NCBI RefSeq assembly: GCF_014931565.1
Contig: NZ_CP063353.1
Coordinates: forward strand, 3,798,872-3,822,871
Source: Clostridium sp. 'deep sea'
GTDB taxonomy: Bacteria; Bacillota; UBA994; PWPR01
DNA length: 24,000 nt
Direction of reading: 5' to 3'
The notes beneath the pieces are model-generated. The model did no database searches. It was not told the DNA's origin and saw only the letters and a list, made by a program, of their open reading frames with translations. Position 1 is the stretch's first letter; each line of letters opens with the position of its first letter. Below, piece after piece: positions 5,339-23,938 of this stretch. The position numbers and the translations under genes are program-made.

Positions 5339-5346
5339 GACAATAA
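5339..5346. repeat. Right copy of the 8-bp target-site duplication GACAATAA
   Basis: Identical to 3668-3675. Confidence 0.85.
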
Positions 5347-5365
5347 ACCTAAAGCTGTACTGTTT

Positions 5366-6190
5366 ATGCTAATGTCTGCGCTTTCATTTGTGTTTATGCA
5401 AACAATGGTGAAACTAGCAGGCGATATACCTATCTTCGAAAAGGTTTTGTTTCGTAACCTTGTAAGCTTAGTTGTAGCTCTTTATGTCATTTATAGTACA
5501 AAGACAAAGATGTTTGGTAATAAGGAAAATCAAAAATACTTACTTAGTAGGTCTCTATTAGGTGTTGGTGGTGTAGTATTTTATTTTTATGCAATTAATA
5601 ATTTAATTATGGCAGATGCTGCTATGTTAAATAAACTTTCTCCTTTTTTTGTGACAATTTTTGCTTATCTTTTCTTAAAAGAAAAGCTTAATAAAATACA
5701 AGTTCCATCATTAATAATTGTGTTTATCGGAGCATTACTAATTATTAAACCTGAGTTCAGCTTTGAAGTATTACCTGCTTTATCGGGATTATTATCTGCA
5801 ATATGTGCAGGTGCAGCATATACATTAGTTAGGTTGTTAAAAAATAAAGAGAATCCTTCTACTATTATATTTTACTTCTCTTTTGTATCTGTAATTGCAA
5901 TGATTCCCTTAACCATAATGAATTTTGAGATGCCAGTTGGTATTCAATGGTTATATCTTATTGGTACAGGAGTATTTGCTGCAATAGGTCAATATGGATT
6001 AACCTTTGCTTATAAACTTGCTCCAGCCTCCGAAGTATCTATTTACAATTATATGAGCATTATTTTTGCGGCTATAATGGGCTTTTTTATGTGGAGAGAG
6101 GTTCCAGATTTACTAAGTGTTATAGGTGGTTTGCTCATTATTGTAGTTGCAGTTGCAAGTTTTTGGTACCAGAACAAAAGAGTTGCTTAA
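5366..6190 (+). CDS. EamA/DMT-family (drug/metabolite) transporter, 5' end severed by the IS insertion and probably inactivated
   Basis: Polytopic hydrophobic protein with about 10 predicted helices and the two-repeat EamA layout (SALSFVFMQTMVKLAG..., ...GQYGLTFAYKLAPASEVSIYNYM). The frame is open back to 5306, and NKPKAVLF continues the orphaned start at 3665. There is no SD in front of the internal ATGs at 5366 and 5372. Confidence 0.8.
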   Translation: MLMSALSFVFMQTMVKLAGDIPIFEKVLFRNLVSLVVALYVIYSTKTKMFGNKENQKYLLSRSLLGVGGVVFYFYAINNLIMADAAMLNKLSPFFVTIFAYLFLKEKLNKIQVPSLIIVFIGALLIIKPEFSFEVLPALSGLLSAICAGAAYTLVRLLKNKENPSTIIFYFSFVSVIAMIPLTIMNFEMPVGIQWLYLIGTGVFAAIGQYGLTFAYKLAPASEVSIYNYMSIIFAAIMGFFMWREVPDLLSVIGGLLIIVVAVASFWYQNKRVA

Positions 6191-6227
6191 AAAATATAAT
6201 TATATTGTTTTGTTGTAATGCTTTAGC

Positions 6228-6262
6228 AATAACTCACTTATTTAATAAGTGAGTTATTTTTA
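6228..6262 (+). terminator. Intrinsic terminator after the EamA gene
   Basis: Perfect 13-bp stem: AATAACTCACTTA (6228-6240) pairs with TAAGTGAGTTATT (6246-6258). Loop TTTAA, then TTTT. Confidence 0.8.
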
Positions 6263-6288
6263 CATATTACATTAATAACAATACTTAA

Positions 6289-6363
6289 TAGATCGAAATG
6301 GTCATTTATATTTGACATTTATAGGTGCTAGAGCATATACTAAATATAGACCGAAGTGGTCTA
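6289..6363. promoter_or_regulatory. Two related palindromic boxes bracketing the promoter (candidate TetR operators)
   Basis: TAGATCGAAATGGTCA (6289-6304) and TAGACCGAAGTGGTCTA (6347-6363). The second is a perfect 6-5-6 inverted repeat, TAGACC/GGTCTA. One box lies upstream of the -35 and the other just downstream of the -10. Confidence 0.5.
6312..6341 (+). promoter_or_regulatory. Putative sigma-A promoter of the TetR/phosphotransferase unit
   Basis: TTGACA (6312-6317), 18-nt spacer, TATACT (6336-6341), 45 nt upstream of ATG 6387. Confidence 0.55.
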
Positions 6364-6386
6364 GCGGTTCTAGAAAGAGTGACATA

Positions 6387-7007
6387 ATGGAAGATAAGTT
6401 TAAAAATATAGATTTAAATAATGAAAAAGTAAAAAGAATTGTTAATGCTGCGTATGAAGAATTTGCAAAGTATGGTGAAAATAAAGCATCGTTAAATAAG
6501 ATTCTTAGATCATCGGGTATTTCAAAAGGTGTTTTTTATCACTATTTTGAAGATAAGCAAGAGCTGTTTAATTTTTTACTATATTACTCGGTTAGTAAAG
6601 CAGTAATTGATTTAGAGCAGAATTTTGATTGGAATAACAACGATATAATTAAAAGAATATGTGATGTTTCTAAGTGTAGATTTGGGATTATAATAGAGTA
6701 TCCTTATTTAATGGAGTTTATTGAGCAATTTAGAGATAAAGTTTATAACGAAGCTCAAAAAAGTAATTTTAAGGTATTTAGAGAAAAGTTCTATACATTT
6801 AATATTGATTACTCAAAGTTTAAAGATCAATCAAAAGCAAAAGAAGCTATTCATATAATTCGCTGGACTTATAAGGGGTTAGGCATAGAGGTGCTTAATA
6901 AACACGGATATGTTTTAGATGACGCTATTATTGTAGAACTTATTAATTTATGTGATTTGTACTACCAAGTATTAACTTCTCATTTTTACAAACAAGTAGG
7001 TAATTAA
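6387..7007 (+). CDS. TetR/AcrR-family transcriptional regulator
   Basis: ORF track 6312..7007 begins at a TTG that is the -35 box itself. ATG 6387 is preferred. The N-terminal RIVNAAYEEFAKYGENKASLNKILRSSGISKGVFYHYFEDKQELF is a canonical TetR HTH. Confidence 0.85.
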   Translation: MEDKFKNIDLNNEKVKRIVNAAYEEFAKYGENKASLNKILRSSGISKGVFYHYFEDKQELFNFLLYYSVSKAVIDLEQNFDWNNNDIIKRICDVSKCRFGIIIEYPYLMEFIEQFRDKVYNEAQKSNFKVFREKFYTFNIDYSKFKDQSKAKEAIHIIRWTYKGLGIEVLNKHGYVLDDAIIVELINLCDLYYQVLTSHFYKQVGN

Positions 7008-7072
7008 AGCATAATAGAAACCTAGTACTGTTGTTAACAGACAGAGTACAGTTATTGAATAGGAGGGTTACT

Positions 7073-9634: not shown

Positions 9635-9748
9635 TAAATACAAATAATTGCTGCATTAAAGATTACTTGTATATATTACCTTTAGTAGTGTATTGATTAA
9701 CAATGACTAGTGTTGTGAAAAAAAAATACATTTCAAAAAGAGAATGAG

Positions 9749-9781
9749 AAAGCATGGCATCTAATTAGATATCATGCTTTT
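9749..9781. terminator. Hairpin between convergent genes (possible bidirectional terminator)
   Basis: AAAGCATG (9749-9756) pairs with CATGCTTT (9773-9780). The inner palindrome is ATCTAATTAGAT, and the flanks are A/T-rich. Confidence 0.45.
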
Positions 9782-9804
9782 AATTTATAAATAATAGGTA
9801 TTAT

Positions 9805-10252
9805 TTAATGAGTTTCAACTAAAACTTTAAGCGTTGCCATAGCTATTTTTTGCAAAGCCTCGTAATTAATATTCTTAGAAATATCTGCTGGAGTATGGTA
9901 ATACTCGCTTCTAAAGTTAGCCATATCAGTTATAAAAAGACCCGGTATGCCTTTTTTCCAGAAAGACCAGTGATCAGATCTTAATACATCTGATGCATAT
10001 TTTTTTATTAAATTATATTCAAAGGGAAGTCCTAATCATATGTAGTCTATATTAATTGTTTCATCTTGGCAACTTGCTAAAAATCTATTTAGGATATCTG
10101 TAGAATTTTTTTTCACCAAATACTGCAATACAATTTCTTTTCACCTTTTCTAAATCAACATTTTTAGTTTTAATTAGCTGTTTAATATTATCATCAAAAG
10201 GTAACTCACTTGTTTTATTACTTTGTGGATCAACCCATCCCAAGCAGTCATA
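9805..10252 (-). pseudogene. Truncated, disrupted remnant of an M28-family (aminopeptidase-like) peptidase gene
   Basis: My own minus-strand translation ends ...LGLPFEYNLIKKYASDVLRSDHWSFWKKGIPGLFITDMANFRSEYYHTPADISKNINYEALQKIAMATLKVLVETH*, with the stop at 9805-9807. SDHxxF and YHTxxD are M28 C-terminal signatures. There is an in-frame TGA at 10036-10038. A frame change is needed at the T8/A8 run (10106-10113) to continue into ...NCIAVFGEK. No N-terminal half and no start codon are present. Confidence 0.55.
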
Positions 10253-10301
10253 TCATTCTATGATTTTATGGACTAATTAAATTAAATTTCATAAATTCTT
10301 G

Positions 10302-10856
10302 TTAACTATTTCGTTCCTCACGCAGTATGCCATAGCTTACAGAGTCGTAGTATTTACCATCTACAATCCTTGCTTTTCTGTATACCGCTTCACATTTTAG
10401 TCCAGTTTTTTCTGCTAACTTTATCATTCTTAAGTTTCCCGACCAAGTCGTAAGACCTAATCTTACTAGTTGAGGATATTTCTCAAATAATATATCAATC
10501 CACAATGGTAATGCCTGATAACCAATGCCTTTACCCCAGTATTTTTCATTAAAAATGACAATTCCAACTTCCATCCACAAGGTTTCTTTTGATTTCCAAT
10601 ACCAAGATACTTCACCTATAAGCTCATTAGTATCTTTATTGGCTATCATCTGTCTTACTTCATGAAAACCTTCATCCTTGTTTAACAGTTTTGTTCTTAG
10701 TTTTTTAATACAAGCTTTTAACTCTTCTTCGGTAGTTTGTTTAAAATAAGGTCCATTAAATTTATGATATTCTCTACTTGGGTGTTTTAAATAAAAGTAA
10801 TTCTCTAAATCATTAATGGTAATATTTCTGAGAACTATAGATGTATTATTAGTTAT
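10302..10856 (-). CDS. GNAT-family N-acetyltransferase (RimJ/RimL-like) with no canonical start codon at the expected position
   Basis: The ORF track gives only 10302..10649, starting at an internal Met. The frame stays open upstream as AIVITNNTSIVLRNITINDLENYFYLKHP...EGFHEVRQ-MIANK, a typical GNAT N-terminal half. The GKGIGYQAL acetyl-CoA motif is present. SD GAGAGGGG lies 8 nt upstream of an ATA codon (10856-10854). There is no ATG, GTG or TTG in frame before 10649. Confidence 0.6.
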   Translation of the reverse strand: MTNNTSIVLRNITINDLENYFYLKHPSREYHKFNGPYFKQTTEEELKACIKKLRTKLLNKDEGFHEVRQMIANKDTNELIGEVSWYWKSKETLWMEVGIVIFNEKYWGKGIGYQALPLWIDILFEKYPQLVRLGLTTWSGNLRMIKLAEKTGLKCEAVYRKARIVDGKYYDSVSYGILREERNS

Positions 10857-11007
10857 TACAATCGCCCCTCTCTGTTATGTATATTATAAGCTTTGAAGTG
10901 GGTGTTTTCAAGGTTATAGAAAACTTACGGACATTTGTCCTAGAATATTTAGCAGATTTGACTATACTTTAAGTAACTAAATGTATATATATGAAAGTGG
11001 TGTTATT

Positions 11008-12525
11008 ATGCAGTCCAGTCTTAATGATATTATTGATATTGTAATTAGTAAAACTATGACTCCACAGCAAAAACTAATTGCTTTAGGCAATACCGCAGAA
11101 AGGCTTATTTCACCTGTTGAGCTTCTTGGCTACACAGAAGAAGAGCTGGCATACATTAATAATCAAATGATATGTGATTTAAATGAGGGTTATGCTATTT
11201 ATCGACCACGTTATATTGTGCCAGATTATACTGTCTTTGCAGAAAAAGGCTGTCAGTTTTTAGAACTAGAGCCACCCAAAGATTTAGATGAACTATTAGA
11301 TGGCTTGCTTATTCTTTATAGTCATGTTCCATCAATAACATCCTACCCAGTATTTATAGGTCACTTAGATAGACTAATAGAGCCTTTTTTAACTAATGAA
11401 AAAACAGATTATCTTAAAATTAAACGTTTTCTTAACCATATAGATAAAACAATTATCGACTCTTTTTGTCACGCCGATATAGGTCCTTATGACAGTAAGG
11501 CTGGCAGATTAATATTAAAAGCAGTTGTGGAGCTAGAAAATCCAACACCTAATATGACAATTCGTTACGATAAAAACAAAACATCAAAAGATTTTGCACA
11601 GCTTGCGGCGGCTGCTTGTTTACAAGTATCTAAACCATCATTTTCAAATGACGTTTATTACAATAAAGATATTGGCAGCCATGCTATTTGTAGTTGTTAC
11701 AATGCTTTGCCTTTAGCAGGTGGAGCTTATACTTTGTCACGTTTACGGCTAGGTACTATAGCTAAGTCTGCTACTAGCTTAGACATGTTAATTAGTGAAC
11801 TACTACCAAAGGTAGCTAAACTTATGTTATCAATTATAGATAAACGAACTAGTTTTATTGTTGAAAAATCTAATTTCTTTGAGTCAAGCTTTTTGGCAAG
11901 TGAGGGTTTTATAAACAAAGATAATTTCACAGCAATGTTTGCTATTGTTGGTTTAGCAGATGCTGTTAATACTATGCTTGCTTTAGAGGGATTAAGTGAA
12001 ACATTTGGAACTTCTACAAGGGGTGATGAAATAGGTCATTTAATCATGAATACTATTAAAGAAATAGTTGAAAAACATGAAGGAAAATATGTTAGCAGAA
12101 CTAATAACAGATATTTGCTTCATGCTCAAGTAGGTGCCTCAATTCATGAAGAGGACAAAGACAATACTCCTGCTCATAGAATTAAAGTAGGTCAAGAGCC
12201 ATCTTTAGTTGAACACTTAAAACAATCAGCCCCATTTCATCAATATTTTCCAGCTGGCACAGGTGATTTATTTGCCTTTGATCAAACTTGGTTAAGTCAC
12301 CCAGAGGCTATAGTAGATATAATTGATGGTGCTTTTGTTAGTGGTTATCGCTATATAACAACCTATTTAAAAAATTCCGATTTAATTCGGGTTACTGGCT
12401 ATTTAGTTAAAAAAAGTGAAGTAGAAAAACTAAGAAATAATCAGGCAGTTTTAAGAGACACAACTGTGTTTGGTATGGGTACCGAAGATAATAGTAAAGT
12501 CTTTGACCGTAAACTAAGAGAGTAG
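11008..12525 (+). CDS. yjjI: YjjI-family glycyl-radical enzyme of unknown function
   Basis: About 505 aa, the size of E. coli YjjI. N-terminal ...TMTPQQKLIALGNTAERL and a C-proximal glycyl-radical fingerprint LIRVTGYLV (Gly codon 12397-12399). An activase gene follows directly. Preferred start is ATG 11008, the second Met of the ORF-track call. Confidence 0.75.
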   Translation: MQSSLNDIIDIVISKTMTPQQKLIALGNTAERLISPVELLGYTEEELAYINNQMICDLNEGYAIYRPRYIVPDYTVFAEKGCQFLELEPPKDLDELLDGLLILYSHVPSITSYPVFIGHLDRLIEPFLTNEKTDYLKIKRFLNHIDKTIIDSFCHADIGPYDSKAGRLILKAVVELENPTPNMTIRYDKNKTSKDFAQLAAAACLQVSKPSFSNDVYYNKDIGSHAICSCYNALPLAGGAYTLSRLRLGTIAKSATSLDMLISELLPKVAKLMLSIIDKRTSFIVEKSNFFESSFLASEGFINKDNFTAMFAIVGLADAVNTMLALEGLSETFGTSTRGDEIGHLIMNTIKEIVEKHEGKYVSRTNNRYLLHAQVGASIHEEDKDNTPAHRIKVGQEPSLVEHLKQSAPFHQYFPAGTGDLFAFDQTWLSHPEAIVDIIDGAFVSGYRYITTYLKNSDLIRVTGYLVKKSEVEKLRNNQAVLRDTTVFGMGTEDNSKVFDRKLRE

Positions 12526-12532
12526 GTCTATT

Positions 12533-13297
12533 ATGAGGTTACCGGTACGTCGAATAATTCCATTCTCTAATGTTGAGGGAGTAGGTAATAGAACAAGTAT
12601 TTTTGTTCAGGGCTGTAACGCTAATTGTTTATATTGTCATAATAGCGAAACCATTGTTATGAAGTGTGATGAAGCTAAGCTATACACCGTAGCTGAGTTG
12701 TTAAAGATCATTAAAACCAATATGCCTTTCATACGAGGAATAACGGTTTCGGGCGGAGAATCTACGCTTTATTATGAATTTTTAGTAGAGTTATTTAAAC
12801 GAGTACACGAGTTAAATTTAACCTGTTACGTTGACACTAATGGCTTTTATGACACCATTAAATTACAAGAGCTAATACAGCATACCGATAAATTTCTGTT
12901 TGATATTAAAGCTAGGGGTGAATCCCTAGCGCCTTTATGTTTTTCTAACTTATTACCTAAGTCTTCTGCTTTAGCTAAAAATTATTATGAGAGATTTATA
13001 ATTAATGAGCAACATTTTAATAATCTTGAAATACTATTAAAACAAGACAAGGTTGAAGAAGTGCGTTTGGTGTATATTAAGGGTTACTACGATGTTAAAA
13101 ATACTGTAAATAGAATAACTCAATTAATCAAGCCTTATACAAATGTAATTTTTAAGCTTATTAGGGTTCATGTTAGGGGGTTGCCTAAAGCAAGAGCAGT
13201 AAAGCTTAAAGGTGTTATTCCAAGCAAAGCAGAAGTAGATGAGTTAGAGTTGTATATTAAGTCATTAGGGGTGCAGAATATAGTAAAGATTTATTAA
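12533..13297 (+). CDS. yjjW: Glycyl-radical enzyme activating protein (radical SAM, YjjW/PflA-like)
   Basis: GCNANCLYCHN gives the CxxxCxxC radical-SAM cluster motif (12614-12637). GITVSGGEST is the SAM-binding GGE motif. The gene starts 7 nt after the yjjI-like stop. Confidence 0.8.
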   Translation: MRLPVRRIIPFSNVEGVGNRTSIFVQGCNANCLYCHNSETIVMKCDEAKLYTVAELLKIIKTNMPFIRGITVSGGESTLYYEFLVELFKRVHELNLTCYVDTNGFYDTIKLQELIQHTDKFLFDIKARGESLAPLCFSNLLPKSSALAKNYYERFIINEQHFNNLEILLKQDKVEEVRLVYIKGYYDVKNTVNRITQLIKPYTNVIFKLIRVHVRGLPKARAVKLKGVIPSKAEVDELELYIKSLGVQNIVKIY

Positions 13298-13307
13298 TAA
13301 ATAAATA

Positions 13308-13340
13308 ATATGGGGGACTTTTTGTCCTTCATATTATTTA
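13308..13340 (+). terminator. Intrinsic terminator after the activase gene
   Basis: ATATGGGGGAC (13308-13318), loop TTTTT, GTCCTTCATAT (13324-13334). All 11 positions pair on the plus-strand RNA, including two G-U pairs. On the minus strand those two positions become A-C mismatches. Confidence 0.6.
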
Positions 13341-14008
13341 TAACTAGCCTTTTGCTGAAGTTTGTTTATATCTATTACAGTTACTGCTGCATTTTCTCTT
13401 ATTAATATGCCTTCTTGCTCTAATTCTGCTAACACTCTTCTTAAGTGTCTTAAACTAATTCCAAGATAATCCGCAGTTTGATTGCTTTGTACATCAGGAA
13501 TCTTATTGCCATGAATTTTAGAGAGTTCATACAAGAATTTTGCTAAGCGGTTTTTAAGAGGATATAGTAAAGTTCTGGCATATTTAAAAGAAGTTCGTTT
13601 CATTTTTTGAGCTAGGTTTCGGCAAATATACTTGTAAAATTGACTATTGTGTTGAAAATATAAATCAATAGAGTTTACTGGAATAGCTAAAAGTGTACAG
13701 GGGCTTAGGGCTCTTACCTGATAATAATAATTGTCGTCATTAAAATACTCTATATCACCAATAACATCCCCTAAAATTATAATATCTAAAAGACTAAGTT
13801 TGCCTTTTTCGGATAATGGAACAATTCCGGCCTGACCATCAAGCAACACATAAAGATTTTCGACATTATCTTCACTATTAAATAGAACTTCACTAGCTGC
13901 AAAACTATGTAAAGACAACATACTAAGCAAATTATCATCAAAAATGTGAGTTAGGTTAAGGTCCTTTATATATTTTTTAATAATATCAGTATTCTTAGAT
14001 ATTTTCAT
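13334..14008 (-). CDS. Crp/Fnr-family transcriptional regulator (cNMP-binding-like domain plus C-terminal HTH)
   Basis: LYVLLDGQAGIV...LGDVIGDIEYF is the beta-roll effector domain. QTADYLGISLRHLRRVLAELEQEGIL is the HTH. There is no N-terminal Cys cluster, so it is not an FNR-type O2 sensor. ATG 14008 with AAAGGA upstream is preferred over TTG 14023. Confidence 0.8.
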   Translation of the reverse strand: MKISKNTDIIKKYIKDLNLTHIFDDNLLSMLSLHSFAASEVLFNSEDNVENLYVLLDGQAGIVPLSEKGKLSLLDIIILGDVIGDIEYFNDDNYYYQVRALSPCTLLAIPVNSIDLYFQHNSQFYKYICRNLAQKMKRTSFKYARTLLYPLKNRLAKFLYELSKIHGNKIPDVQSNQTADYLGISLRHLRRVLAELEQEGILIRENAAVTVIDINKLQQKASYK

Positions 14009-14171
14009 GTTAAGTCCTTTCAATAATATATCATTAATATAAAGTTTAATACTATAAAAGTCAAAAAAAGATAGTGTAAATCAAGTTAGCCAAGAAATAC
14101 TAATTGAAGTATAATAATATTATATCAACAAAACATATGTTTAACTATTATTAAGTATTTAAGGGGTTAAA

Positions 14172-15260
14172 ATGGAATTTCACAATAAAAAATATAACAC
14201 CGTTGCAGACTGGTATATTGGAGGCTTAGCCAAATTTTTAAGCCCCCTATATGAAGTAGTGCCAGAGAGCATTAGCATTAAAAAAAGTAAGTTTATTAAA
14301 GCTGAACAAGAGTTACATAGTTACATTAATAATCTATATCAAAATATGCATAATAATGCAGAGTTATATAATATACCTTTAGCAACTTTTGAGGGCAAAG
14401 ACTTTAACAAAAAAAGACTAAAGGTGCGTAAAGTTATCAACATCATTTTAGATTTTTTGTATAAACTTGCTCAACTTGCTACCCTAGAAGAATGTAGCTT
14501 AGTTTTAGCAATAGAAAACTGGCATAAAATAAGAGATGATAAAATAAAAAAGCTTAAATCCGAAAAAAAATTTAATAATCTTGTTTTGATATTAGGTTTT
14601 ACAGTAAATGTAAAGCAAAATATAGTTGTTATTAATCATAAAAATTACCCAGCTATGTTAATAGCCCTTAGTTACTATGCAAAGTTATGTAGCCAAGATA
14701 AAAAATATGGTTTTAGATACTTTTATCAGCTGGATTTTAGAAGATTTAATAACTATAAATTACAGATGAACGATGTTATAAACTCATTACCATTAGAGCT
14801 TAAAATAATGGTAACAGAAACAGATAATTTGTTAATGAAGTTAAAGTATCGCAAAAAAATAGAGCTTTATGAGGACTTTGGATATCGAGTAGCCTACTCC
14901 AATAAAGCAGGTGTGGTATATTATATTCATATTAATTCCTATAAAATAGATACTTATTATCATTATTTGCGTTGGGTTTTAAATTCAGCTCAATCGGATA
15001 AATGTATTAACACATTGATTCAAGAAGGTAAACAAAATATAGTAGATTACCTAAAACATAATATAGTACAATGTGACCCCAATTGTATACCAGGTTATGG
15101 TGCTAAATCACCAGAGCAATGCCAAGCACGTATTCATATACCATATTATGATCTTTATGTTTGTAAAGATAAAGGCTGTTTAGTAGGAATAGCTAGTTAT
15201 GAATTTGAGTATATTCAAGTTGTTTTAGAAATAATTAATGAGATTATTTCTAAAAAATAA
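14172..15260 (+). CDS. Hypothetical protein with a Cys-rich C-terminal segment
   Basis: Intact 362-aa ORF with RBS AAGGGG. I recognise no family. The C-terminal segment is QCDPNCIPGYGAKSPEQCQARIHIPYYDLYVCKDKGC. Confidence 0.6.
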   Translation: MEFHNKKYNTVADWYIGGLAKFLSPLYEVVPESISIKKSKFIKAEQELHSYINNLYQNMHNNAELYNIPLATFEGKDFNKKRLKVRKVINIILDFLYKLAQLATLEECSLVLAIENWHKIRDDKIKKLKSEKKFNNLVLILGFTVNVKQNIVVINHKNYPAMLIALSYYAKLCSQDKKYGFRYFYQLDFRRFNNYKLQMNDVINSLPLELKIMVTETDNLLMKLKYRKKIELYEDFGYRVAYSNKAGVVYYIHINSYKIDTYYHYLRWVLNSAQSDKCINTLIQEGKQNIVDYLKHNIVQCDPNCIPGYGAKSPEQCQARIHIPYYDLYVCKDKGCLVGIASYEFEYIQVVLEIINEIISKK

Positions 15261-15322: not shown

Positions 15323-15841
15323 ATGACAAAACTTAATAGAAAACAATTAAGGATTAATAACTATGATTACTCTAAACCTAACTATTATTTTGTAACTATC
15401 TGTACGTTCAATATGAATAACCTCTTTGGAAGAATAATTAATAACAAAATGAATTTAAATAGTAGTGGTGTAATAGTAAAAGACGCTCTTTTAACAACAA
15501 TATCTTATAATAAAACTTTTAAGCTTGATAAATATATTATTATGCCTAATCATGTACATGCTATTATTATTAAAAATAATATTTTAATAACAAAAAATTT
15601 ATTACCCAAGTCCACCACATCAATAAGTGATTTTATTTGTGAATTTAAGTCAAGAACTGTACATAAGTATATTCGTGCTGTAAAGAATAAAGAATGTCCA
15701 CCATTTAATAAAAGAATATGGCAACGTAGTTTTTATGACCATATTATAAGAAATCAACAGGATTACCAAAGAATTTGCAAATACATAAACACAAATCCTC
15801 AAAAGTGGCAGCAGGATAAATACTTCAATGCAAAAATATAA
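15323..15841 (+). CDS. rayT: REP-associated tyrosine transposase (RAYT), IS200-like HUH/Y1 family
   Basis: 172 aa. N-terminal NYDYSKPNYYFVTICT. HUH motif at MPNHVHAII (HVH codons 15551-15559). The C-terminal block IWQRSFYDHIIRNQQDYQRICKYINTNPQKW aligns with my recollection of the E. coli RayT/YafM block IWQPRFWEHAIRNTKDYRHHVDYIYINP. The candidate catalytic Tyr codon is at 15782-15784. Confidence 0.85.
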   Translation: MTKLNRKQLRINNYDYSKPNYYFVTICTFNMNNLFGRIINNKMNLNSSGVIVKDALLTTISYNKTFKLDKYIIMPNHVHAIIIKNNILITKNLLPKSTTSISDFICEFKSRTVHKYIRAVKNKECPPFNKRIWQRSFYDHIIRNQQDYQRICKYINTNPQKWQQDKYFNAKI

Positions 15842-15851: not shown

Positions 15852-16900
15852 GCGGTGGAGGGCTTTATGTCCTCCATAATTAATAAGATAACCCACTCAT
15901 TAAAAAAGGCAGACACAAGGCCTGTCACTACGTAGAGTAACAGAAGTAAAATCCGTAGTGGAGGGCTTTATGTCCTCCAAAATTAATAAGATAACCCCCC
16001 TCAAAAAAAGAAGGCAGACACAAGGCCTGCCACTACGAAAGTAACAGAAGTAAAAGCAGTAGTGGAGGGCTTTATGTCCTCCATAATTAATAAGATACCC
16101 CCAAAGAAAACAAGGCAGACACAAGGCCTGCCACTATGTAGAGTAACAGAAGTAAAATCCGTAGTGGAGGGCTTTATGTCCTCCATAATTAATAAGATAA
16201 CCCCCTCATTAAAACAAGGCAGACACAAGGCCTGCCACTACGAAGAGTAACAGAAGTAAAATCCGTAGTGGAGGGCTTTATGTACTCCATAATTAATAAG
16301 ATACCCCCCATTAAAACAAGGCAGACACAAGGCCTGCCACTACGAAGAGTAACAGAAGTAAAATCCGTAGTGGAGGGCTTCATGTCCTCCATAATTAATA
16401 AGATACCCCTTCATTAAAACAAGGCAGACACAAGGCCTGCCACTACGAAAGTAACAGAAGTAAAAGCAGTAGTGGAGGGCTTTATGTACTCCATAATTAA
16501 TAAGATACCCCTTCATTAAAACAAGGCAGACACAAGGCCTGCCACTACGTAGAGTAACAGAAGTAAAATCCGTAGTGTAGGGCTTTATATCCTCCATAAT
16601 TGATAAAATAACCCTTCATTAAAACAAGGCAGACACAAGGCCTGCCACTACGAAGAGTAACAGAAGTAAAATCCGTAGTGGAGGGCTTCATGCCCTCCAA
16701 AATTAATAAGATAACCCACTCATTAAAACAAGGCAGACACAAGGCCTGCCATTACGTAGAGTAACAGAAGTAAAAGCCGTAGTGGAGGGCTTTATGTCCT
16801 CCAAATTAATAAGATACCCCCAAAAAAACAAGGCAGACCCAAGGCCTGCCACTACGAAGAGTAAAGTAATAAGCCGTAGTGGAGGGCTTTATGTCCTCCA
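15852..16900. repeat. Array of 21 REP-like hairpins: 11 Y-type on the plus strand and 10 Z-type inverted. The period is 97-104 bp. The layout is BIME/REPIN-like.
   Basis: The Y hairpin TGGAGGGC-TTTAT-GTCCTCCA starts at 15856, 15959, 16063, 16165, 16269, 16371, 16473, 16576, 16679, 16783 and 16880. Each copy except the first is preceded by GTAG. Between Y copies sits GGCAGACACAAGGCCTGCCACTAC, whose reverse complement is GTAGTGGCAGGCCTTGTGTCTGCC. The array starts 11 nt after the RAYT stop codon. Confidence 0.9.
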
Positions 16901-17034
16901 AAACGGTTTTCGTTTTTGTTAATCAAAAATTAAGAATTTCTTAAGTTTAAATTGAAGTTTTTTTAATTTTAGTTAGCTATACTAATAACATTCGGAGATA
17001 ACAAGTAGTTTATAACAAAAGGAGAGCAAATTAC

Positions 17035-17721
17035 TTGAAAACATTAATACTTACAAAAATAAAACCCATAGATTATAAGGATCTAAAAGATGTTAGCAGG
17101 TTTATTTCCGAAGAGAGGCTTGCTCGTGCAGAGCTATTTACAGACAATAACAGAAAAAATGAATTTATTACAGTTGAGATAGCTGCTTCATATTTTGTAT
17201 CAGAGGTTTTTAATATATCTTTACCTAAATTTAATGGCAAAGCGGGTGAAAAACCCTATTTATGTAATTATCCTAATATATCAGTTAGTCGTTCATATGC
17301 TGATAATTATGTAGTATTTGCCTTAGAAAATAATTTTGATATTGGTGTAGATTGCGAAAAAATAAAAAGCTTTGATAAAAACACCCTTAAGTATTTTTTT
17401 ACAGAACAAGAGTGTAGATATATTAATGACTCAAAGTGTCCTAATCTTGCTTATGCAATTATTTGGACTCGCAAAGAAAGTTATCTAAAGTGTACTGGTC
17501 AAGGTCTTGCTTTTGCTCTCAGTAAGCTTGATGTTACACCACAAAATAATTGGGTAAATAGTAATAGTAGGTATCCAATTTATAAGAACAACGATCAAGT
17601 TAAGAGTAAATTTATTAATAGCTATATATATAATGATCTTGTAATATCTCTCTGTAGTACTAGTGATAACAATAGCCCTACATTAACATTACAAGTTAAA
17701 AACATGAATTTAGGAGTATAG
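17035..17721 (+). CDS. Sfp-type 4'-phosphopantetheinyl transferase
   Basis: TTG start 8 nt after GGAGAG (17021-17026). PPTase motifs are GVDCEKI (the GxD(I/C)E motif), FTEQECRYI and WTRKESYLKCTGQGL (the W/F-x-x-KE-S/A-x-x-K motif). The 228-aa length fits Sfp type rather than AcpS type. Confidence 0.8.
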   Translation: MKTLILTKIKPIDYKDLKDVSRFISEERLARAELFTDNNRKNEFITVEIAASYFVSEVFNISLPKFNGKAGEKPYLCNYPNISVSRSYADNYVVFALENNFDIGVDCEKIKSFDKNTLKYFFTEQECRYINDSKCPNLAYAIIWTRKESYLKCTGQGLAFALSKLDVTPQNNWVNSNSRYPIYKNNDQVKSKFINSYIYNDLVISLCSTSDNNSPTLTLQVKNMNLGV

Positions 17722-17723
17722 CA

Positions 17724-19229
17724 ATGACAAAAACTATTATTGATTTTTTCGAAAATACAGCATTAAAGTATCGTTCTAAAATAGCAGTAGGCGATAAAAA
17801 CGCCAGTTTTACTTATGAGCAACTTATGGAAAAAGCCCAAAAAGTAGGTGCAGTTATTGCAGAAAAAGGCTTTATTAAAAGACCTATTGCGATATTGATG
17901 AATAGAACATGCAAATTGCCTGCAACAATGTTAGGTGTTTTATATAGTGGTAACTTTTATGTAGTTTTAGATAGTAACTCAACCTTTAATAGGCAACAGA
18001 AAATAGTAGACATTCTTAGGCCATCTGCTGTAATATATGAAAGTCAGTTTAATAATATAGTAAATCAGTTAAATGGTGAATTTGTGAAATTAGAGTTAGA
18101 AAAAATAGAACCTACAGCTAATGGTTACAAAAAACTCAATAAAGCAAAAAATCAAATACTTTCAACAGACCCTGCTTTTTCGATATTTACATCTGGTTCT
18201 ACTGGGTTCCCTAAGGGTGTATTAATAACTCATCAAAATGTTATATCATACATTGATTGGTTTACAACAAGTATGAAAATATCTAGTAATACAGTGTTTG
18301 GATCTCAAACTCCACTGCACTTTAGTATGTCGGTATCTGATTTATTCGCTACCTTAGCTAAAGGTGGCACATATCATATGATACCCAAAGAGTACTTTGT
18401 GTTTCCTGCAAAACTAATTGAATTTATGAACGAGCGTAATGTAAATACAATATATTGGGTGCCAACAGCGCTTGCTATTGTTGCCAAGTTTAATTTATTT
18501 AAATATACCAAGCCAACATCTTTAAATAAGGTATTATTTGCAGGTGAAGTTATGCCTATTAAATACCTAAATTATTGGAGAAGCTATTTACCTAATGTTA
18601 TGTATGCAAATTTATTTGGTCCAACCGAAACCACTGATATTTGCACCTATTATGTGGTTAATCGTGAGTTTGAGGATACCGAAAGTTTGCCAATAGGTAG
18701 TCCTTGTGAAAACTGTTGTGTTTATTTAATAAATGAACAGGGTGAACAGGTAGCTGATGGTGACATAGGAGAGCTCTATGTTTCAGGAGCATTTGTTGCA
18801 AAGGGTTATTACAATAACTATAAAAAAACTAAAGAGAGTTTTGTTCAAAATCCCTTACAATCGGCATACCCTGAGTTGGTTTATAAAACAGGTGATTTGG
18901 CAAGAAAAAATGAATACGGAGAGCTTGAATATTTGGGAAGAAAAGATTTTCAAATAAAGCGTAATGGTTATCGCATAGAGTTAGGCGAAATTCAGGCTGC
19001 ATTTGCTAAAGTTAAAGGTATAGAGTTATCAGTTTGTTTATATGATGAAAAGCAACAACAGATAGTATTGGTTTATGAAGGGGCTACACATTTAAAAGAA
19101 CAGTTAAAAAAAGTAGCTAATCAAAAACTTCCAGCATATATGCGCCCAGATAAATATATAGCTACTGATTGTTTCCCTAAAAACGCTAATGGAAAAATAA
19201 GTAAAAAACTATTGAAAAATATTATATAA
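17724..19229 (+). CDS. DltA-like carrier-protein ligase (stand-alone ANL adenylation enzyme)
   Basis: 501 aa, the size of DltA. Motifs: A3 FTSGSTGFPKGV, A5 NLFGPTETT, A7-A8 YKTGDLA...GRKDFQIKRNGYRIELGEI, A10 NGKISKK. It aligns without gaps to my recollection of B. subtilis DltA around FGSQTPLHFSMSVSDLFATLAKGGTYH. Starts 2 nt after the PPTase stop. Confidence 0.85.
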   Translation: MTKTIIDFFENTALKYRSKIAVGDKNASFTYEQLMEKAQKVGAVIAEKGFIKRPIAILMNRTCKLPATMLGVLYSGNFYVVLDSNSTFNRQQKIVDILRPSAVIYESQFNNIVNQLNGEFVKLELEKIEPTANGYKKLNKAKNQILSTDPAFSIFTSGSTGFPKGVLITHQNVISYIDWFTTSMKISSNTVFGSQTPLHFSMSVSDLFATLAKGGTYHMIPKEYFVFPAKLIEFMNERNVNTIYWVPTALAIVAKFNLFKYTKPTSLNKVLFAGEVMPIKYLNYWRSYLPNVMYANLFGPTETTDICTYYVVNREFEDTESLPIGSPCENCCVYLINEQGEQVADGDIGELYVSGAFVAKGYYNNYKKTKESFVQNPLQSAYPELVYKTGDLARKNEYGELEYLGRKDFQIKRNGYRIELGEIQAAFAKVKGIELSVCLYDEKQQQIVLVYEGATHLKEQLKKVANQKLPAYMRPDKYIATDCFPKNANGKISKKLLKNII

Positions 19230-19248
19230 AAATGGAGAGAGAAATATA

Positions 19249-19476
19249 ATGAACAAAATAATTGAGATATTGTCAGAGATAATACCAGGAGAAAATTTTG
19301 AAACCGCTAACAACCTTGTAGACGGAAAAATTTTAACATCTGCCAATATAATTCGTCTTGTTGCTAGTTTAAATGAGCAGTTTGATATTGAAATAACACC
19401 GCTATATTTGGTACCTGAAAATTTCAATTCAGTAGAGAGTATTTTTAATTTAGTGACTTTGCTTGACGAGGAATAG
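19249..19476 (+). CDS. Small carrier protein (DltC-like, 75 aa)
   Basis: RBS GGAGAGAG. GKILTSANIIRLVASLNEQFDI aligns with DltC GLLDSFGTVELLLAIENRFDI, with the Ppant-acceptor Ser conserved (codon 19339-19341, context TS rather than DS). Confidence 0.75.
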   Translation: MNKIIEILSEIIPGENFETANNLVDGKILTSANIIRLVASLNEQFDIEITPLYLVPENFNSVESIFNLVTLLDEE

Positions 19477-19481
19477 TATTC

Positions 19482-21038
19482 ATGCCTAATCGGATTTTTG
19501 TTTATTTTATACTGTATTTAGTCATGAATACCCTTATATACGCTGTTTGCCCTCGCAAACAGCGTTATATTGTGTTATTAATGTCTAGTTTAATTTTTTA
19601 TAGTGTTTTTAGTGGATATGGTGTTTTGCTGTTGTTATGCACTATTATTACTACACATTACACAGCTCTAGTTATGGATAAAATAGGGTTAGCATACATT
19701 ACTACTGGGTTAGCTAAGCCCGAGCGAAAAAAACTAAAAGCCCAAATTAAGCATAAAAAACGCCTTGTATTATGTTTGTGTATTGTTATTAATGTGGGCA
19801 TTTTGTTAATAACAAAGTATTTTAATTTTTTTTCAAGGTCTTTTAGTAAACTTATTGCTACTTTTGGTCTTAATTTGCCTGTTCATGTAATAAAAATTAT
19901 TTTACCTTTAGGTATTTCTTACTATACGTTACAAGCATTGAGTTATGTAATAGATGTATTTAGAGGTAAATATCCGGCAGAGAAAAATATTTTAAAGACT
20001 GCTTTATTTATTGGATTTTTTCCGCAACTGCATGAGGGACCATTTGGGCGATATGATAAGCTTATGCCTGTTATGTCAGCAGGTAAACAAATAAATTCTG
20101 AGAATTTGTATGAGGGAATTGCTCGTTTTTTGTGGGGCTTTTTTAAGATATTTATGGTCGCTAATCGGGTATCATTAATATCTGATATGGTCTTTAATGA
20201 TTACAGTTCATATGGTGGTTTTGCCATTATTATAGGCATAGTTGCCTTTACAATACAGCTTTATGCAGAGTTCTCTGGCTATATAGACATAGCTGTAGGT
20301 ATTGCTAAGGTATTAGGTATAGAGTTAGCTAAGAATTTTGATATGCCCTTTATATCACAAAATGTAGCTGAATTTTGGCGTAGATGGCATATTTCATTAG
20401 GATTATGGTTCCGTGATTATGTTTTTTATCCTGTTTCTACGTCAAAAGTAATGTCTAAATTAAGAAAAAAAGTAGGCTCTAAACTTGCAAATTTTGTATC
20501 TATAAATTTAGCAATGTTAACAGTATGGTTTTTAACAGGTATGTGGCATGGAGCAAGTGTAAAATACATTGTTTATGGTCTGTATTATTTTGCACTAATA
20601 ATGCTTTATAATTTGCTTTCACCCTATATAGAAAAATTATTGAAAAAGTATGAGATTAGTGCACATAACAAAATTCTTATAACAGTGAGAATAATAAAAA
20701 CACTTATACTTGTTGGAATAGGTATGTTAATTTTTCGAGCCAAAAATCTAAGAGTTTTTAGAATTATGTTAATGTCTGTTTTTACAAAAGGTACAATGCA
20801 ATTTAATATACTAGCTAAAATTGATTTAAAAGACTTAATTATACTTTGTATTTCTTTTGGATTAATGTTATTACCAGTATTTCTTAAGACTAAAAATATT
20901 GAAATAGATACTAAATATAATTCACTTTCATCTATTAAAAAGTATTGGATTTGCTTTACTGCATTTAGCATAATTGTTATTTTTGGAGCTTATGGATTTG
21001 GATATCTTCCGCCAGACCCAATATATGGAGGGTTTTAA
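19482..21038 (+). CDS. MBOAT-family membrane O-acyltransferase (DltB/AlgI-like)
   Basis: Polytopic 518-aa protein. It carries MBOAT signatures FWRRWHISLGLWFRDYVFYP (catalytic His) and LTGMWHGAS. Confidence 0.9.
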   Translation: MPNRIFVYFILYLVMNTLIYAVCPRKQRYIVLLMSSLIFYSVFSGYGVLLLLCTIITTHYTALVMDKIGLAYITTGLAKPERKKLKAQIKHKKRLVLCLCIVINVGILLITKYFNFFSRSFSKLIATFGLNLPVHVIKIILPLGISYYTLQALSYVIDVFRGKYPAEKNILKTALFIGFFPQLHEGPFGRYDKLMPVMSAGKQINSENLYEGIARFLWGFFKIFMVANRVSLISDMVFNDYSSYGGFAIIIGIVAFTIQLYAEFSGYIDIAVGIAKVLGIELAKNFDMPFISQNVAEFWRRWHISLGLWFRDYVFYPVSTSKVMSKLRKKVGSKLANFVSINLAMLTVWFLTGMWHGASVKYIVYGLYYFALIMLYNLLSPYIEKLLKKYEISAHNKILITVRIIKTLILVGIGMLIFRAKNLRVFRIMLMSVFTKGTMQFNILAKIDLKDLIILCISFGLMLLPVFLKTKNIEIDTKYNSLSSIKKYWICFTAFSIIVIFGAYGFGYLPPDPIYGGF

Positions 21039-21988
21039 TGAAAAAACATAAAATGAATTTCAAAATATTATGTTGTGTAATCTTATCTTTATCACTTTAC
21101 ACTTATATTTGTGTAATTTTTACCCCCAAATCAATTAATGATTTAGGCGGTAAAAACTATTATGGCGGAATGGGATTTTTAGCAGAACCCGAAAATTCTC
21201 TTGATGTAATCATGTATGGTAATTCAGATGTATATTCAGGGTTTATACCTGCATTGATGTATGAGAAATATGGTTTCTCTTCATATGCTTCTGGTGTGCA
21301 ACTTCAAAGTATCAAGAAAATAAATCACTTGTTAAAAGCGACTTTAAAAAAGCAACAACCAAAAATAGTAATCCTTGAGGTGGATTGTCTTTACGATAAA
21401 GACAGTTGTTTAATAAATAATAATAACCTTTTTCTTGCTTCGGTCATGTATCATACCCGCTGGAAAGAGCTCAAACTACGTGACTTTTATACACTCCCAA
21501 ACAGAAAAAATAAGTATGACATAACAAAAGGTTATGAGCACTCGAATTATGTTTATAAATTTAATCCCGGAAAATATATGGGGCATAGTACTGACAAGCC
21601 AGCTGCAATACCAGCAAAAAATATTAAACAGCTAAAGTTTTTTCTTAATACTTGTAGTAAAAAAAATATTAAAGTTATATTTTTAGAACTACCTAGTTCG
21701 GTATCTTGGACCTATGCCAAACATAATTATATAAGTAAAATAGCATCGGAAAATGATATTGCTTTTATTGACCTGAATATTCCAAACAGTAATTATCAGG
21801 CCGATTTTCAAAATGATTTTCGAGATAATGGTAATCACTTAAATGTATATGGTGCAAAAAAAACTACAACATTTATAGGGGATTTTATAGAAAAGAAGTA
21901 TAAAAATATAATCATAGAAGCTAAGAAAGCAACCGTATTAGACTATTGGAGAGATGTAGTATCCTATTACTATGAACAACTTAGTTAG
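21038..21988 (+). CDS. DltD-like membrane-anchored SGNH-fold esterase/acyltransferase partner
   Basis: Its ATG overlaps the MBOAT stop codon (TAATG). It has an N-terminal TM anchor. MYGNSDVYSG parallels the DltD IYGSSELS Ser block. The C-terminal FRDNGNHLNVYGA is an SGNH-type D-x-x-H block. Confidence 0.65.
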   Translation: MKKHKMNFKILCCVILSLSLYTYICVIFTPKSINDLGGKNYYGGMGFLAEPENSLDVIMYGNSDVYSGFIPALMYEKYGFSSYASGVQLQSIKKINHLLKATLKKQQPKIVILEVDCLYDKDSCLINNNNLFLASVMYHTRWKELKLRDFYTLPNRKNKYDITKGYEHSNYVYKFNPGKYMGHSTDKPAAIPAKNIKQLKFFLNTCSKKNIKVIFLELPSSVSWTYAKHNYISKIASENDIAFIDLNIPNSNYQADFQNDFRDNGNHLNVYGAKKTTTFIGDFIEKKYKNIIIEAKKATVLDYWRDVVSYYYEQLS

Positions 21989-22023
21989 ATTATTAATGAC
22001 ATTGTTAAATTATATAATATATT

Positions 22024-22055
22024 GTAGTGGAGGGCTTTGTGCTCTCCATTTTTTT
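22024..22055 (+). terminator. Solo Y-type REP copy acting as the intrinsic terminator of the dlt-like operon
   Basis: GTAG-TGGAGGGC-TTTGT-GCTCTCCA (22024-22048) is followed by T7 (22049-22055), 36 nt after the stop at 21988. It has the same GTAG head and stem as the array units. Confidence 0.8.
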
Positions 22056-22139
22056 AGTTACTAAATTTTATGTAGAATTAAAAATTTATGTTAACATAAT
22101 AAAAGACCATACCAGTTATATAGTAATAGGAGATAAAAT

Positions 22140-22823
22140 ATGAGACTACTAATTATTGAAGATGAAGTTGAATTAGCTAATAGCTTAAAAACTCGTTTAA
22201 ATACCATTGGTTATGCTGTAGATATTGCTTACGATGGTTTAGTCGGTGAAGAAAAAGCTTTAGTAAATAATTATGATATTGTTGTTTTAGATTTAAATCT
22301 TCCTAACAAAAATGGAATTGAAGTATGTAAAGCACTTAGAACAGAAGGTGTTGAGTCAGCTATTATAATGCTTACTGCTAGAGATACAGTTAAGGATAAA
22401 ACACTAGGATTAGATAATGGAGCAGATGACTATTTAATAAAGCCATTTGCCTTTGAGGAATTACGAGCCAGAATACAGGCTTTAGTACGCCGTAGTTATC
22501 AAAGAAGCAACCCCATAATAAAGCTTGATGAATTAGTAATAAATCCATTATCAAGAATGGTTACTTTTAATAATATAAAACTTAGCTTAACTACTAGAGA
22601 GTTTGATATTTTAGAGTATATAGCAGTTAAGTATCCCACAGTAGTTTCCACAGAAGATATCTTGGAACATGTTTGGGATGAAAACATTGATTCTTTTTCT
22701 AATGTTGTTAGAGTACATTTAGCTAACTTAAGAAGAAAGTTAAAAAATAATGTAGGAGATATAAAAATAGAAACAATAAAAGGTAAGGGGTATCGATTAT
22801 GTTTAAATTCAAAACAAGAATAG
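22140..22823 (+). CDS. OmpR/PhoB-family response regulator
   Basis: Receiver domain MRLLIIEDE...DIVVLDLNLP...KPF. Winged-helix output domain LTTREFDILEYI...GKGYRL. RBS AGGAGA. Confidence 0.9.
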   Translation: MRLLIIEDEVELANSLKTRLNTIGYAVDIAYDGLVGEEKALVNNYDIVVLDLNLPNKNGIEVCKALRTEGVESAIIMLTARDTVKDKTLGLDNGADDYLIKPFAFEELRARIQALVRRSYQRSNPIIKLDELVINPLSRMVTFNNIKLSLTTREFDILEYIAVKYPTVVSTEDILEHVWDENIDSFSNVVRVHLANLRRKLKNNVGDIKIETIKGKGYRLCLNSKQE

Positions 22824-23938
22824 CTTTACTAAATAGTATATTTATCATGTTAATTGTTGTATTAGTTTTTATTATCTTATACTATTCTATAGGACATAAC
22901 TTAGCAAAAATGTCCATTGTGGAAGAAATTTATCCTACCGGGGTATATATAACAATACATGAGTTAACTGAAAAATCTATAATAGCTGATAATCGAGGTT
23001 TGAATCCTAAACAATTAGACAAAGTAAATATCGATACAATTCAGTTAGATAAGTTAATTATAAAGGAGATTTCAAAGAAATTAATGACTGTGTTAATAAC
23101 AATATTTATAGTTGTTATGATAATCTCATTTATACTGAGTCGGTATTTGTCTTCACTTACAATGAAGCCACTAGAGTCAATAACTAAAGCTATTAATGAA
23201 CTGTCATCAGACAATTTAGAACTGAACATTAATTTAAATAAAATTAACGCAGATGATGAAATTATAAAGCTAACGAAGTCTTATAACAATGTTGTTAAGA
23301 CCTTAAACAAGACCTTTTTTGATTTAGAACAGTTTAACTCTTATGCCTCACATGAACTTCGTAATTCATTGGCTATTTTTAAATCAAAAATAGAGGTAGG
23401 GGCAAGTAGTGAGGAACTTAATAAATATATTGATAAGTTAAAAGTGACTATTAATGACATGCTGATACTTTCTGCCAGACAAATAAATAATAATACTGAA
23501 CAAGTAGATATCGCCTTAATAGCAGCACAAGCTGTAGATGATTACTTAACAACTGGTAGAACTATTAAGCTTGAGATACCCGAAGATGGAGTTACCCCTA
23601 TAGCTGGTAATGAGAGTTGGTTTTATAGATGTGTAGCTAATTTACTGGATAATGCCATTAAGTATAGTAATGAAGACACACCTATTAATGTATGTGTAAA
23701 AGAAAAAGATAATGCTGTAATACTATCTGTAGAAGACTTTGGTATGGGTATTTCTAAAAAAGATCAAGAAAATATTTGGCAACCTTATTATAGTATTAAT
23801 TCAGGTAAGAGTATTCATGGCTTAGGATTATCGCTTATAAATAATGTAGTGGATTTATGTGGTGGTATGGTATGGGTCAACAGCTCACAAAACAAAGGAA
23901 GTACTTTTTATCTCTCTCTACCTATTTCTTTATCTTAA
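22799..23938 (+). CDS. Sensor histidine kinase (two TM segments, HisKA plus HATPase_c)
   Basis: H-box ASHELRNSLA, N-box LLDNAIKYS, G-boxes EDFGMGI and GLGLSLI. It overlaps the RR gene by 25 nt, consistent with translational coupling. Confidence 0.9.
   Translation: MFKFKTRIALLNSIFIMLIVVLVFIILYYSIGHNLAKMSIVEEIYPTGVYITIHELTEKSIIADNRGLNPKQLDKVNIDTIQLDKLIIKEISKKLMTVLITIFIVVMIISFILSRYLSSLTMKPLESITKAINELSSDNLELNINLNKINADDEIIKLTKSYNNVVKTLNKTFFDLEQFNSYASHELRNSLAIFKSKIEVGASSEELNKYIDKLKVTINDMLILSARQINNNTEQVDIALIAAQAVDDYLTTGRTIKLEIPEDGVTPIAGNESWFYRCVANLLDNAIKYSNEDTPINVCVKEKDNAVILSVEDFGMGISKKDQENIWQPYYSINSGKSIHGLGLSLINNVVDLCGGMVWVNSSQNKGSTFYLSLPISLS

Follow-up and report, generated by a model that had tools for sequence, protein, structure and literature searches.

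The window analysed here, a 24,000-nucleotide stretch of contig NZ_CP063353.1 from Clostridium sp. 'deep sea', carries five plus-strand genes at positions 17035-21988 that probably encode a carrier-protein-dependent acyl relay. In such a relay, an MBOAT (membrane-bound O-acyltransferase) and an SGNH-fold partner would place a small acyl group other than D-alanine, in ester linkage, on an envelope polymer outside the cytoplasm. The cassette appears to be a hybrid. Its donor side, a ligase and a carrier protein, is of the Dlt type, and its putative acyl shuttle, a tyrosine motif fused to the MBOAT, is of the PatA type. Neither this cassette nor such a hybrid was found described in the literature searched, in which carrier-protein donors appear only together with a separate DltX protein.

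Components of the cassette and the proposed fused shuttle motif

The five genes, taken from the list of open reading frames in the window, are packed tightly on one strand:

17035..17721, plus strand: Sfp-size phosphopantetheinyl transferase (PPTase), 228 aa; PF01648; TTG start with ribosome-binding site
17724..19229, plus strand: stand-alone adenylating enzyme (A enzyme) of the nonribosomal peptide synthetase (NRPS) type, 501 aa; TIGR01733 above cut-off
19249..19476, plus strand: carrier protein, 75 aa; PP-binding match below threshold; Ser31 at 19339-19341
19482..21038, plus strand: MBOAT with DltB-like core, 518 aa; PF03062; DltB matches; C-terminal PIYGGF
21038..21988, plus strand: membrane-anchored SGNH-fold protein, 316 aa; AlphaFold2 model, Foldseek matches and invariant residues

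Gaps of 2, 19 and 5 nt separate the first four genes, and at the junction of the MBOAT and SGNH genes the stop and start codons overlap as TAATG (TTTTAATGAAA). The initial annotation of this DNA had given the same genes, coordinates and spacing. The TTG start of the PPTase gene is preceded at a suitable distance by AAGGAGAG. In the NCBI annotation the MBOAT starts 14 codons later, at 19524, and has 504 aa; the longer form starting at 19482 is favoured by homologues of 517 aa and gives the 5-nt gap. The G+C content of the cassette is ~0.30, the same as in the rest of the window.

Scanning species-representative genomes with an SGNH profile yielded 236 stretches with a relative. Eighty loci were fetched, and their gene order was read by tblastn and blastp with the window proteins. 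The order A enzyme, carrier protein, MBOAT, SGNH protein was present in about 60 of the 80, in both Clostridia and Bacilli. The hosts include Vallitalea, Oceanirhabdus, Tissierellales, Ruminococcus, Acutalibacter, Robinsoniella and Coprococcus, as well as Lachnospiraceae and Oscillospiraceae and uncultured Bacilli/Mollicutes. Because the same order recurs in ~60 independent loci, the arrangement is far beyond chance. The initial annotation had used the gene order as an argument against a dlt operon. That argument is weak by itself, and it is the conservation of the order within this family that counts.

The MBOAT has a DltB-like core. It matches the Pfam family PF03062 at 32.5 bits, and DltB is the only named NCBIfam model that it matches strongly. 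Its score against the DltB equivalog TIGR04091 is 164 bits, below the cut-off of 375, and the alignment covers only residues 6-419. Among PDB sequences, its solved relatives are DltB only, with an E-value of 1e-24. An AlphaFold2 model built from 39 homologues (pLDDT 87) has DltB as its top Foldseek match, with a TM-score of 0.69-0.72 normalised to DltB. The protein combines the MBOAT fold with the conserved catalytic His of the DltB type: His356 (20547-20549) aligns with the WHG motif of DltB and is invariant in the 39 homologues.

The MBOAT is ~100 aa longer than DltB. In the model, the extension consists of two helices (449-470 and 484-506) and a low-confidence tail, which is presumably mobile. 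The tail ends in DPIYGGF, with PIYGGF occupying residues 513-518 (21018-21035). All 76 MBOATs of related cassettes (76/76) have the motif [P/F/L]-[I/M/L]-Y-[G/A]-x-F at their exact C-terminus, and Tyr515 and Phe518 are invariant. Anderson et al. 2025 described an 'acyl-shuttle' hexapeptide, FXYXXF, with an invariant Tyr following a transmembrane helix (PMC12148441). In Dlt, the motif belongs to a separate microprotein, DltX; DltB moves D-alanine from DltC to the Tyr of DltX, and this Tyr passes it on to the Ser of DltD. PatA, AlgI and other MBOATs carry the shuttle motif themselves, joined through two additional helices; its Tyr passes the acyl group to the SGNH Ser, and the systems are described as acyl-CoA users without a carrier protein (PMC12148441).

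The PIYGGF of the window protein follows helix 484-506 and differs from FXYXXF in having Pro rather than Phe at the first position. The placement of the motif on two helices and the separate SGNH partner are shared with PatA/PatB, AlgI/AlgJ/AlgX, WssH/WssI, PatA1/PatB1 and CcsH/CcsI. DltB, in contrast, lacks a fused motif and works with a separate DltX, and no small DltX-like open reading frame ending in a shuttle motif lies within 16600-22200. It is because of the fused motif, the lack of such a reading frame and the presence of a ligase and a carrier protein that we describe the cassette as a hybrid.

The fifth protein passes no Pfam or NCBIfam family threshold. Its AlphaFold2 model (pLDDT 91) has an SGNH fold behind an N-terminal helix (residues 2-28), and its Foldseek matches are TesA, GDSL lipases and, lower down, PatB (E 1e-5 to 2e-3). 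Gly61, Ser63, Asp263, Gly265 and His267 are invariant in 37 homologues; Ser63 (21224-21226) is located in GNSD, and Asp263 and His267 in RDNGNH. The fold, the block I Ser and the block V Asp/His place the protein in the SGNH/GDSL superfamily, and Lipase_GDSL_2 matched 27 of the 37 family members weakly when they were scanned singly. The protein had initially been called DltD-like. This description holds as an analogy of role, that of a membrane-anchored SGNH partner, but not as a family assignment. Membership in the DltD family was rejected, since the window protein has no match to Pfam DltD (PF04914) even at E<=5, no other Pfam or NCBIfam match, and no DltD among its top 50 Foldseek structural matches. 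Within the family, two of the 37 members matched PF04914 at E ~0.009, and a profile search of the family against PDB sequences matched nothing. The protein is the presumed final acyltransferase. Its family is very large; at 50% identity it comprises 3208 clusters with E<=1e-30, or 11831 with E<=1e-3. In some loci, two or three tandem SGNH paralogues follow a single MBOAT gene (L005, 8582-9613 and 9977-10954; L035, 8681-11937; L026; L045; L071), which might indicate several acceptor substrates.

The first protein is a PPTase of the Sfp type (group II). Its length of 228 aa fits the two-lobed Sfp group, and it contains an ACPS-superfamily domain at residues 103-207 (Pfam PF01648 ACPS, E 1.4e-15, 57.7 bits). 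Its best NCBIfam matches are the Sfp-type enzymes AusB and HetI, both below the equivalog cut-offs. The presumed substrate of this PPTase is the 75-aa protein of the cassette, which is a generic small carrier protein. The latter reaches 17 bits against Pfam PP-binding, below the gathering score, and 21.6 bits against the DltC equivalog NF003464, which has a cut-off of 68. Ser31 is invariant across 68 homologues and, judging from the sequence, is the presumed phosphopantetheine attachment site.

Two features that the initial annotation had read as signals lost their weight when the relatives were compared. The residue preceding Ser31 is T, D, N, E or S in the family, and a TS in place of the usual DS was therefore rejected as a signal. 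The dedicated PPTase is likewise no hallmark. It adjoins the cassette in the closest clade only, in ~15 of ~60 cassettes (12 upstream and 3 downstream), and is thus an accessory rather than a defining part of the cassette. In 8 loci the PPTase gene is accompanied by a gene for an alpha/beta hydrolase, which could be an editing (type II) thioesterase.

The adenylating enzyme and the acyl group

The A enzyme contains a Pfam AMP-binding domain (E 8.5e-62) and passes the NCBIfam amino-acid adenylation model TIGR01733, with 330 bits against a cut-off of 317.4. The core motifs GPTE and NGK(491) are present, and Lys491 is the equivalent of the A10 Lys517. Against the DltA equivalog TIGR01734 the enzyme reaches 291.8 bits (cut-off 559.85), and against the DltA subfamily model NF003417 it reaches 301.8 bits (cut-off 476). 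Among PDB sequences it scores 220 bits with GrsA, 197 bits with PltF and 190 bits with DltA. By this measure, DltA is no closer to the A enzyme than NRPS adenylation domains are.

In adenylation domains that act on alpha-amino acids, DltA included, Asp235 binds the amino group of the substrate. The A enzyme has Ser201 (18324-18326) at this position of PheA. In the alignments with PDB sequences, its HFSMSV segment is matched by HFDLSV in PltF, and by FDVSV and FDISV (LgrA). The Ser is invariant in 34 members of the window-type subfamily, which bears out the altered adenylation pocket reported in the initial annotation. The pocket code, SMSYLALICK, is also conserved in the 34 members, as S-M-[S/T/L]-Y-[L/M]-A-L-I-C-K. 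The best PDB match for the pocket-forming segment is PltF (6o6e, E 2e-18), and in the same alignment 7 of the 10 code positions are shared with the proline code of PltF (DLLYLALVCK). This match suggests a compact, largely hydrophobic pocket. Three positions in the A4 helix differ from those of PltF (D to S, L to M and L to S), the amine anchor among them. The cassette also differs from PltF/PltL-type proline systems in having no downstream pyrrole-forming dehydrogenase. A second acidic residue, Asp305 (18636-18638), is invariant and located in GPTETTDIC.

Three kinds of substrate are possible. An amino acid may be loaded directly, with its amine held by Asp305 and not by residue 235. Alternatively, the substrate may be a small non-amino acid, for example a hydroxy, oxo, cyclic or short-chain acid. 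It may also be an alpha-amino acid that is bound in an unconventional way. Loading of D-alanine in the manner of DltA is the reading least compatible with the data.

The related loci split into two subfamilies. The window-type subfamily accounts for 33 of the 62 complete cassettes; its A enzymes are 40-62% identical, and the carrier protein gene directly follows that of the A enzyme. The sister subfamily comprises ~30 loci, with A enzymes ~35% identical, and has a gene for a fold-type-III pyridoxal phosphate (PLP) decarboxylase between the A enzyme and carrier protein genes (for example at 6879-8066 in L040; also in L036, L041, L048 and L053, among others). The A-enzyme code in this subfamily is DVKILSLNCK, with Asp235 and Lys239, and a Cys is found where the window type has Asp305. 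The best solved relative of the decarboxylase is BtrK (E 2.5e-30), just ahead of the diaminopimelate decarboxylases. BtrK is the decarboxylase of L-glutamyl-[BtrI carrier protein].

In the Btr and Vin pathways, an amino acid is loaded on a carrier protein and then decarboxylated by a PLP-dependent enzyme. The row of A enzyme, PLP decarboxylase and carrier protein in the sister subfamily resembles BtrI/BtrJ/BtrK and VinL/VinN/VinO; the window cassette has no decarboxylase and does not share this likeness. The Btr and Vin products feed antibiotic biosynthesis and not an MBOAT, and BtrJ is an ATP-grasp ligase and not an adenylation domain. By analogy with these pathways, the sister gene set suggests that an omega-aminoacyl group is made by decarboxylation on the carrier and exported afterwards. 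An acidic amino acid would be tethered by its side-chain carboxylate and then decarboxylated to give a beta-alanyl or gamma-aminobutyryl thioester. The position of the decarboxylase gene between those of the A enzyme and the carrier protein indicates that the carrier-bound acyl group is a pathway intermediate.

The AlmEFG system, which adds glycine to lipid A in Vibrio cholerae, also relies on a ligase similar to DltA and a carrier similar to DltC to put a group other than D-alanine on an envelope molecule. The cassette shares this logic of ligase and carrier, and AlmE (4oxi) is among the PDB matches of the A enzyme. However, AlmG, a lipid A acyltransferase, belongs to another family, and AlmEFG has no MBOAT and no SGNH partner.

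The proposed relay and competing explanations

Combining these observations, we propose a relay of five steps. The Sfp-type PPTase would convert the carrier protein to its holo form at Ser31. The A enzyme, in which the adenylation domain is observed, would adenylate a small acid and load it as a thioester on the carrier. At the cytoplasmic face, the MBOAT would take the acyl group from the carrier protein, and His356 would mediate its transfer to Tyr515 in the same protein, as the motif and the homology to known systems suggest. The tail would then hand the acyl group to Ser63 of the SGNH protein, which would place it on a hydroxyl of a surface glycopolymer or glycolipid. Control of the cassette probably lies with the adjacent OmpR-type two-component system as part of an envelope-stress response, given how often the two are neighbours. 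The domains required are all present in the window, the chemistry is what they predict, and any particular acyl group is much less certain. The initial annotation had proposed a paralogous system for putting another acyl or aminoacyl group on a polymer of the cell surface, and such a system, with a different acyl group and an acceptor outside the cytoplasm, is still the best reading. Its interpretation is supported in part, and it did not include the fused Tyr motif on the MBOAT or the sister decarboxylase.

Several observations weigh against the relay. The C-terminal region of the MBOAT has no HMM-level similarity to DltX models, and the link between the two would rest on the six-residue motif and its position. 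Most cassettes have no adjacent PPTase gene. Related MBOAT-SGNH pairs in three loci (L034, L043 and L047) have no A enzyme or carrier protein gene nearby, and carrier dependence may not hold for every member of this MBOAT clade. In these loci, either the donor genes are located elsewhere or another donor is used. In the pocket, Asp305 falls in register with position 329 or 330, differing between the PltF and LgrA alignments; it might still hold an amine, and the substrate could then be an amino acid. As a separate observation, the MBOAT-SGNH pair in L043 adjoins a LiaF-like cell-wall-stress gene.

The cassette could instead be a small type II NRPS-like pathway in which the MBOAT and the SGNH protein acylate a small molecule or a membrane lipid. 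Such a pathway would account for an A enzyme that passes an NRPS adenylation-domain model and has a pocket similar to that of PltF, the proline loader of a type II NRPS, and for an Sfp-type PPTase that is joined in 8 loci by a possible type II thioesterase. However, no condensation, ketosynthase, reductase, oxidase or halogenase partner was found in the window or among the conserved neighbours. The A enzyme and carrier protein are strictly paired with an MBOAT that has the putative shuttle motif and with an externally anchored SGNH protein, and in characterised systems the MBOAT-SGNH pairing acylates envelope polymers (PMC12148441). We therefore consider an NRPS-like pathway unlikely.

A diverged but functional dlt system, with an A enzyme that loads D-alanine and an MBOAT and SGNH protein that put it on teichoic acid, would have the same overall logic as the cassette. 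As in DltXABCD of Firmicutes, a small acid would be loaded by an ATP-dependent ligase on its own dedicated carrier of ~75-80 aa and taken across the membrane by an MBOAT, with an SGNH protein anchored in the membrane as the last partner. Among solved structures the MBOAT is closest to DltB, the DltA subfamily models match the A enzyme with E-values of 1e-87 to 1e-90, and the MBOAT has a putative acyl-Tyr shuttle motif. The adjacent two-component system recalls the regulation of dlt, and envelope-stress regulation of the cassette is probable. The details of the proteins argue otherwise. The scores of the A enzyme, MBOAT and carrier protein are about half of the DltA, DltB and DltC equivalog cut-offs or less, in line with the initial view that the locus differs from a conventional dlt operon. 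All members have Ser in place of the amino-group-binding Asp, and the pocket code has nothing specific to the alanine-size pocket of DltA, seven of its ten positions being those of a proline code. The SGNH partner is outside the DltD family, and in place of a separate DltX the cassette has a motif fused to the MBOAT through two extra helices. The decarboxylase of the sister clade would be needless for D-alanine loading. The gene order is A-C-B-D, and the clade of the window cassette has a dedicated Sfp-type PPTase, whereas Dlt relies on AcpS (title of PMC9338922). Taken together, these differences make a functional dlt system distinctly unlikely.

It is highly improbable that the last two genes encode an ordinary acetyl-CoA O-acetyltransferase pair of the PatA/PatB or AlgI/AlgJ type with the A enzyme, carrier protein and PPTase genes as unrelated neighbours, for although the fused C-terminal motif with two extra helices is the architecture of acetyl-CoA MBOATs, one homologue is named 'alginate O-acetyltransferase' by NCBI and some related MBOAT-SGNH pairs lack nearby A enzyme and carrier protein genes, the ligase and carrier genes are strictly linked directly upstream (with gaps of 5-19 nt in the window) and in the same order in ~60 loci from several families and classes, a synteny that unrelated genes would not keep, and the MBOAT core is nearest to DltB in sequence and fold, DltB being its only significant match among named models and structures.

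Beyond the relay itself, we consider tentatively a broader reading in which the cassette and its thousands of relatives represent a third, undescribed envelope acylation architecture that adds acyl groups new to Gram-positive surface polymers. As a whole, it is doubtful. A carrier-protein donor would be combined with a tyrosine shuttle fused to the MBOAT. The sister subfamily, with Lys at 239, would make beta-alanyl or gamma-aminobutyryl esters. In the window type the amine anchor would be swapped, with Ser/Asp in place of the Asp/Cys of the sister subfamily at position 235 and in the TETTDIC segment. Such a swap would imply that the window enzyme loads either an omega-amino acid directly or a small non-amino acid in its proline-like pocket.

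Genomic surroundings and significance

The features on either side of the cassette that bear on its regulation or its repeats are the following:

15323-15841: IS200-like Y1 transposase, 172 aa, RAYT-like; PF01797, E 5e-7
22027..22048, plus strand: hairpin and T run, terminator-like; diverged copy of the upstream repeat unit
22140..22823, plus strand: OmpR-family response regulator; Response_reg and Trans_reg_C
22799..23938, plus strand: histidine kinase, 379 aa; HAMP, HisKA and HATPase_c

An OmpR-type regulator adjoins 26 of the 62 complete cassettes and a kinase 19 of the 62, either upstream or downstream, and the two are the commonest neighbours in both subfamilies. The regulator is the likely regulator of the cassette. 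In the Logan contig L001, the two-component genes are followed by a MacB/FtsX-type ABC transporter. In this contig, which is otherwise identical, the kinase is split into genes of 174 aa and 189 aa (L001:5926-7066), probably by an assembly frameshift or by strain variation.

Between the IS200-like transposase gene and the cassette lies a tandem array (15855-16900) of 10.2 copies of a 102-nt unit with 91% matches. Its G+C content is 0.40, compared with 0.30 around it, and a pair of G+C-rich hairpins lies in each unit. The array has 11 occurrences of the first hairpin, GTGGAGGGCTTTATGTCCTCCA, and a further one, with 3 mismatches, follows directly after the cassette, where it resembles a terminator; no matches are expected by chance. 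The array looks like a REP/BIME-type element that has a cognate transposase and brackets the cassette. An upstream regulatory RNA was considered and rejected, since no Rfam family reaches the gathering score anywhere in the window. A promoter scan was uninformative, with 28 sites found and 32 expected.

The genes further upstream (63-15260) have unrelated functions and were rejected as partners of the cassette. They encode a transglutaminase-like protein, a transposase, an EamA transporter, a TetR regulator, a PPDK-like protein and a GNAT protein, together with a YjjI glycyl-radical enzyme, its activase and a Crp regulator. The YjjI-like enzyme (PF11230, E 1.7e-208) and its radical-SAM activase occupy 10981-13297 and are unrelated to the cassette; the adjoining gene for the Crp-family regulator is at 13334-14023 on the minus strand. 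A Mutator-family transposase gene (PF00872, E 7e-120) is located between unrelated genes at 4033-5256, also on the minus strand. With this transposase and the IS200-like one, the region carries mobile elements.

Resistance to cationic antimicrobial peptides and interaction with the host both depend to a major degree on D-alanylation by Dlt, which is a drug target as well. In the current picture, MBOAT-SGNH systems are either of the Dlt type, with a carrier-protein donor and a separate DltX, or acyl-CoA systems, in which the motif is fused and a carrier protein is lacking (PMC12148441). The cassette appears to combine both types. As a proposed MBOAT-SGNH envelope acylation relay, it has an architecture absent from current reviews and extends a known logic. 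It is common across Clostridia, with many gut Lachnospiraceae, Oscillospiraceae and Ruminococcus among its hosts, and is also found in marine hosts. Knowledge of the acyl group would put names to a large set of genes now called 'amino acid adenylation domain protein', 'MBOAT family protein' or 'hypothetical protein'. It would also show how the donor specificity of MBOATs evolved, and would bring to light a surface chemistry that is new for abundant anaerobes.

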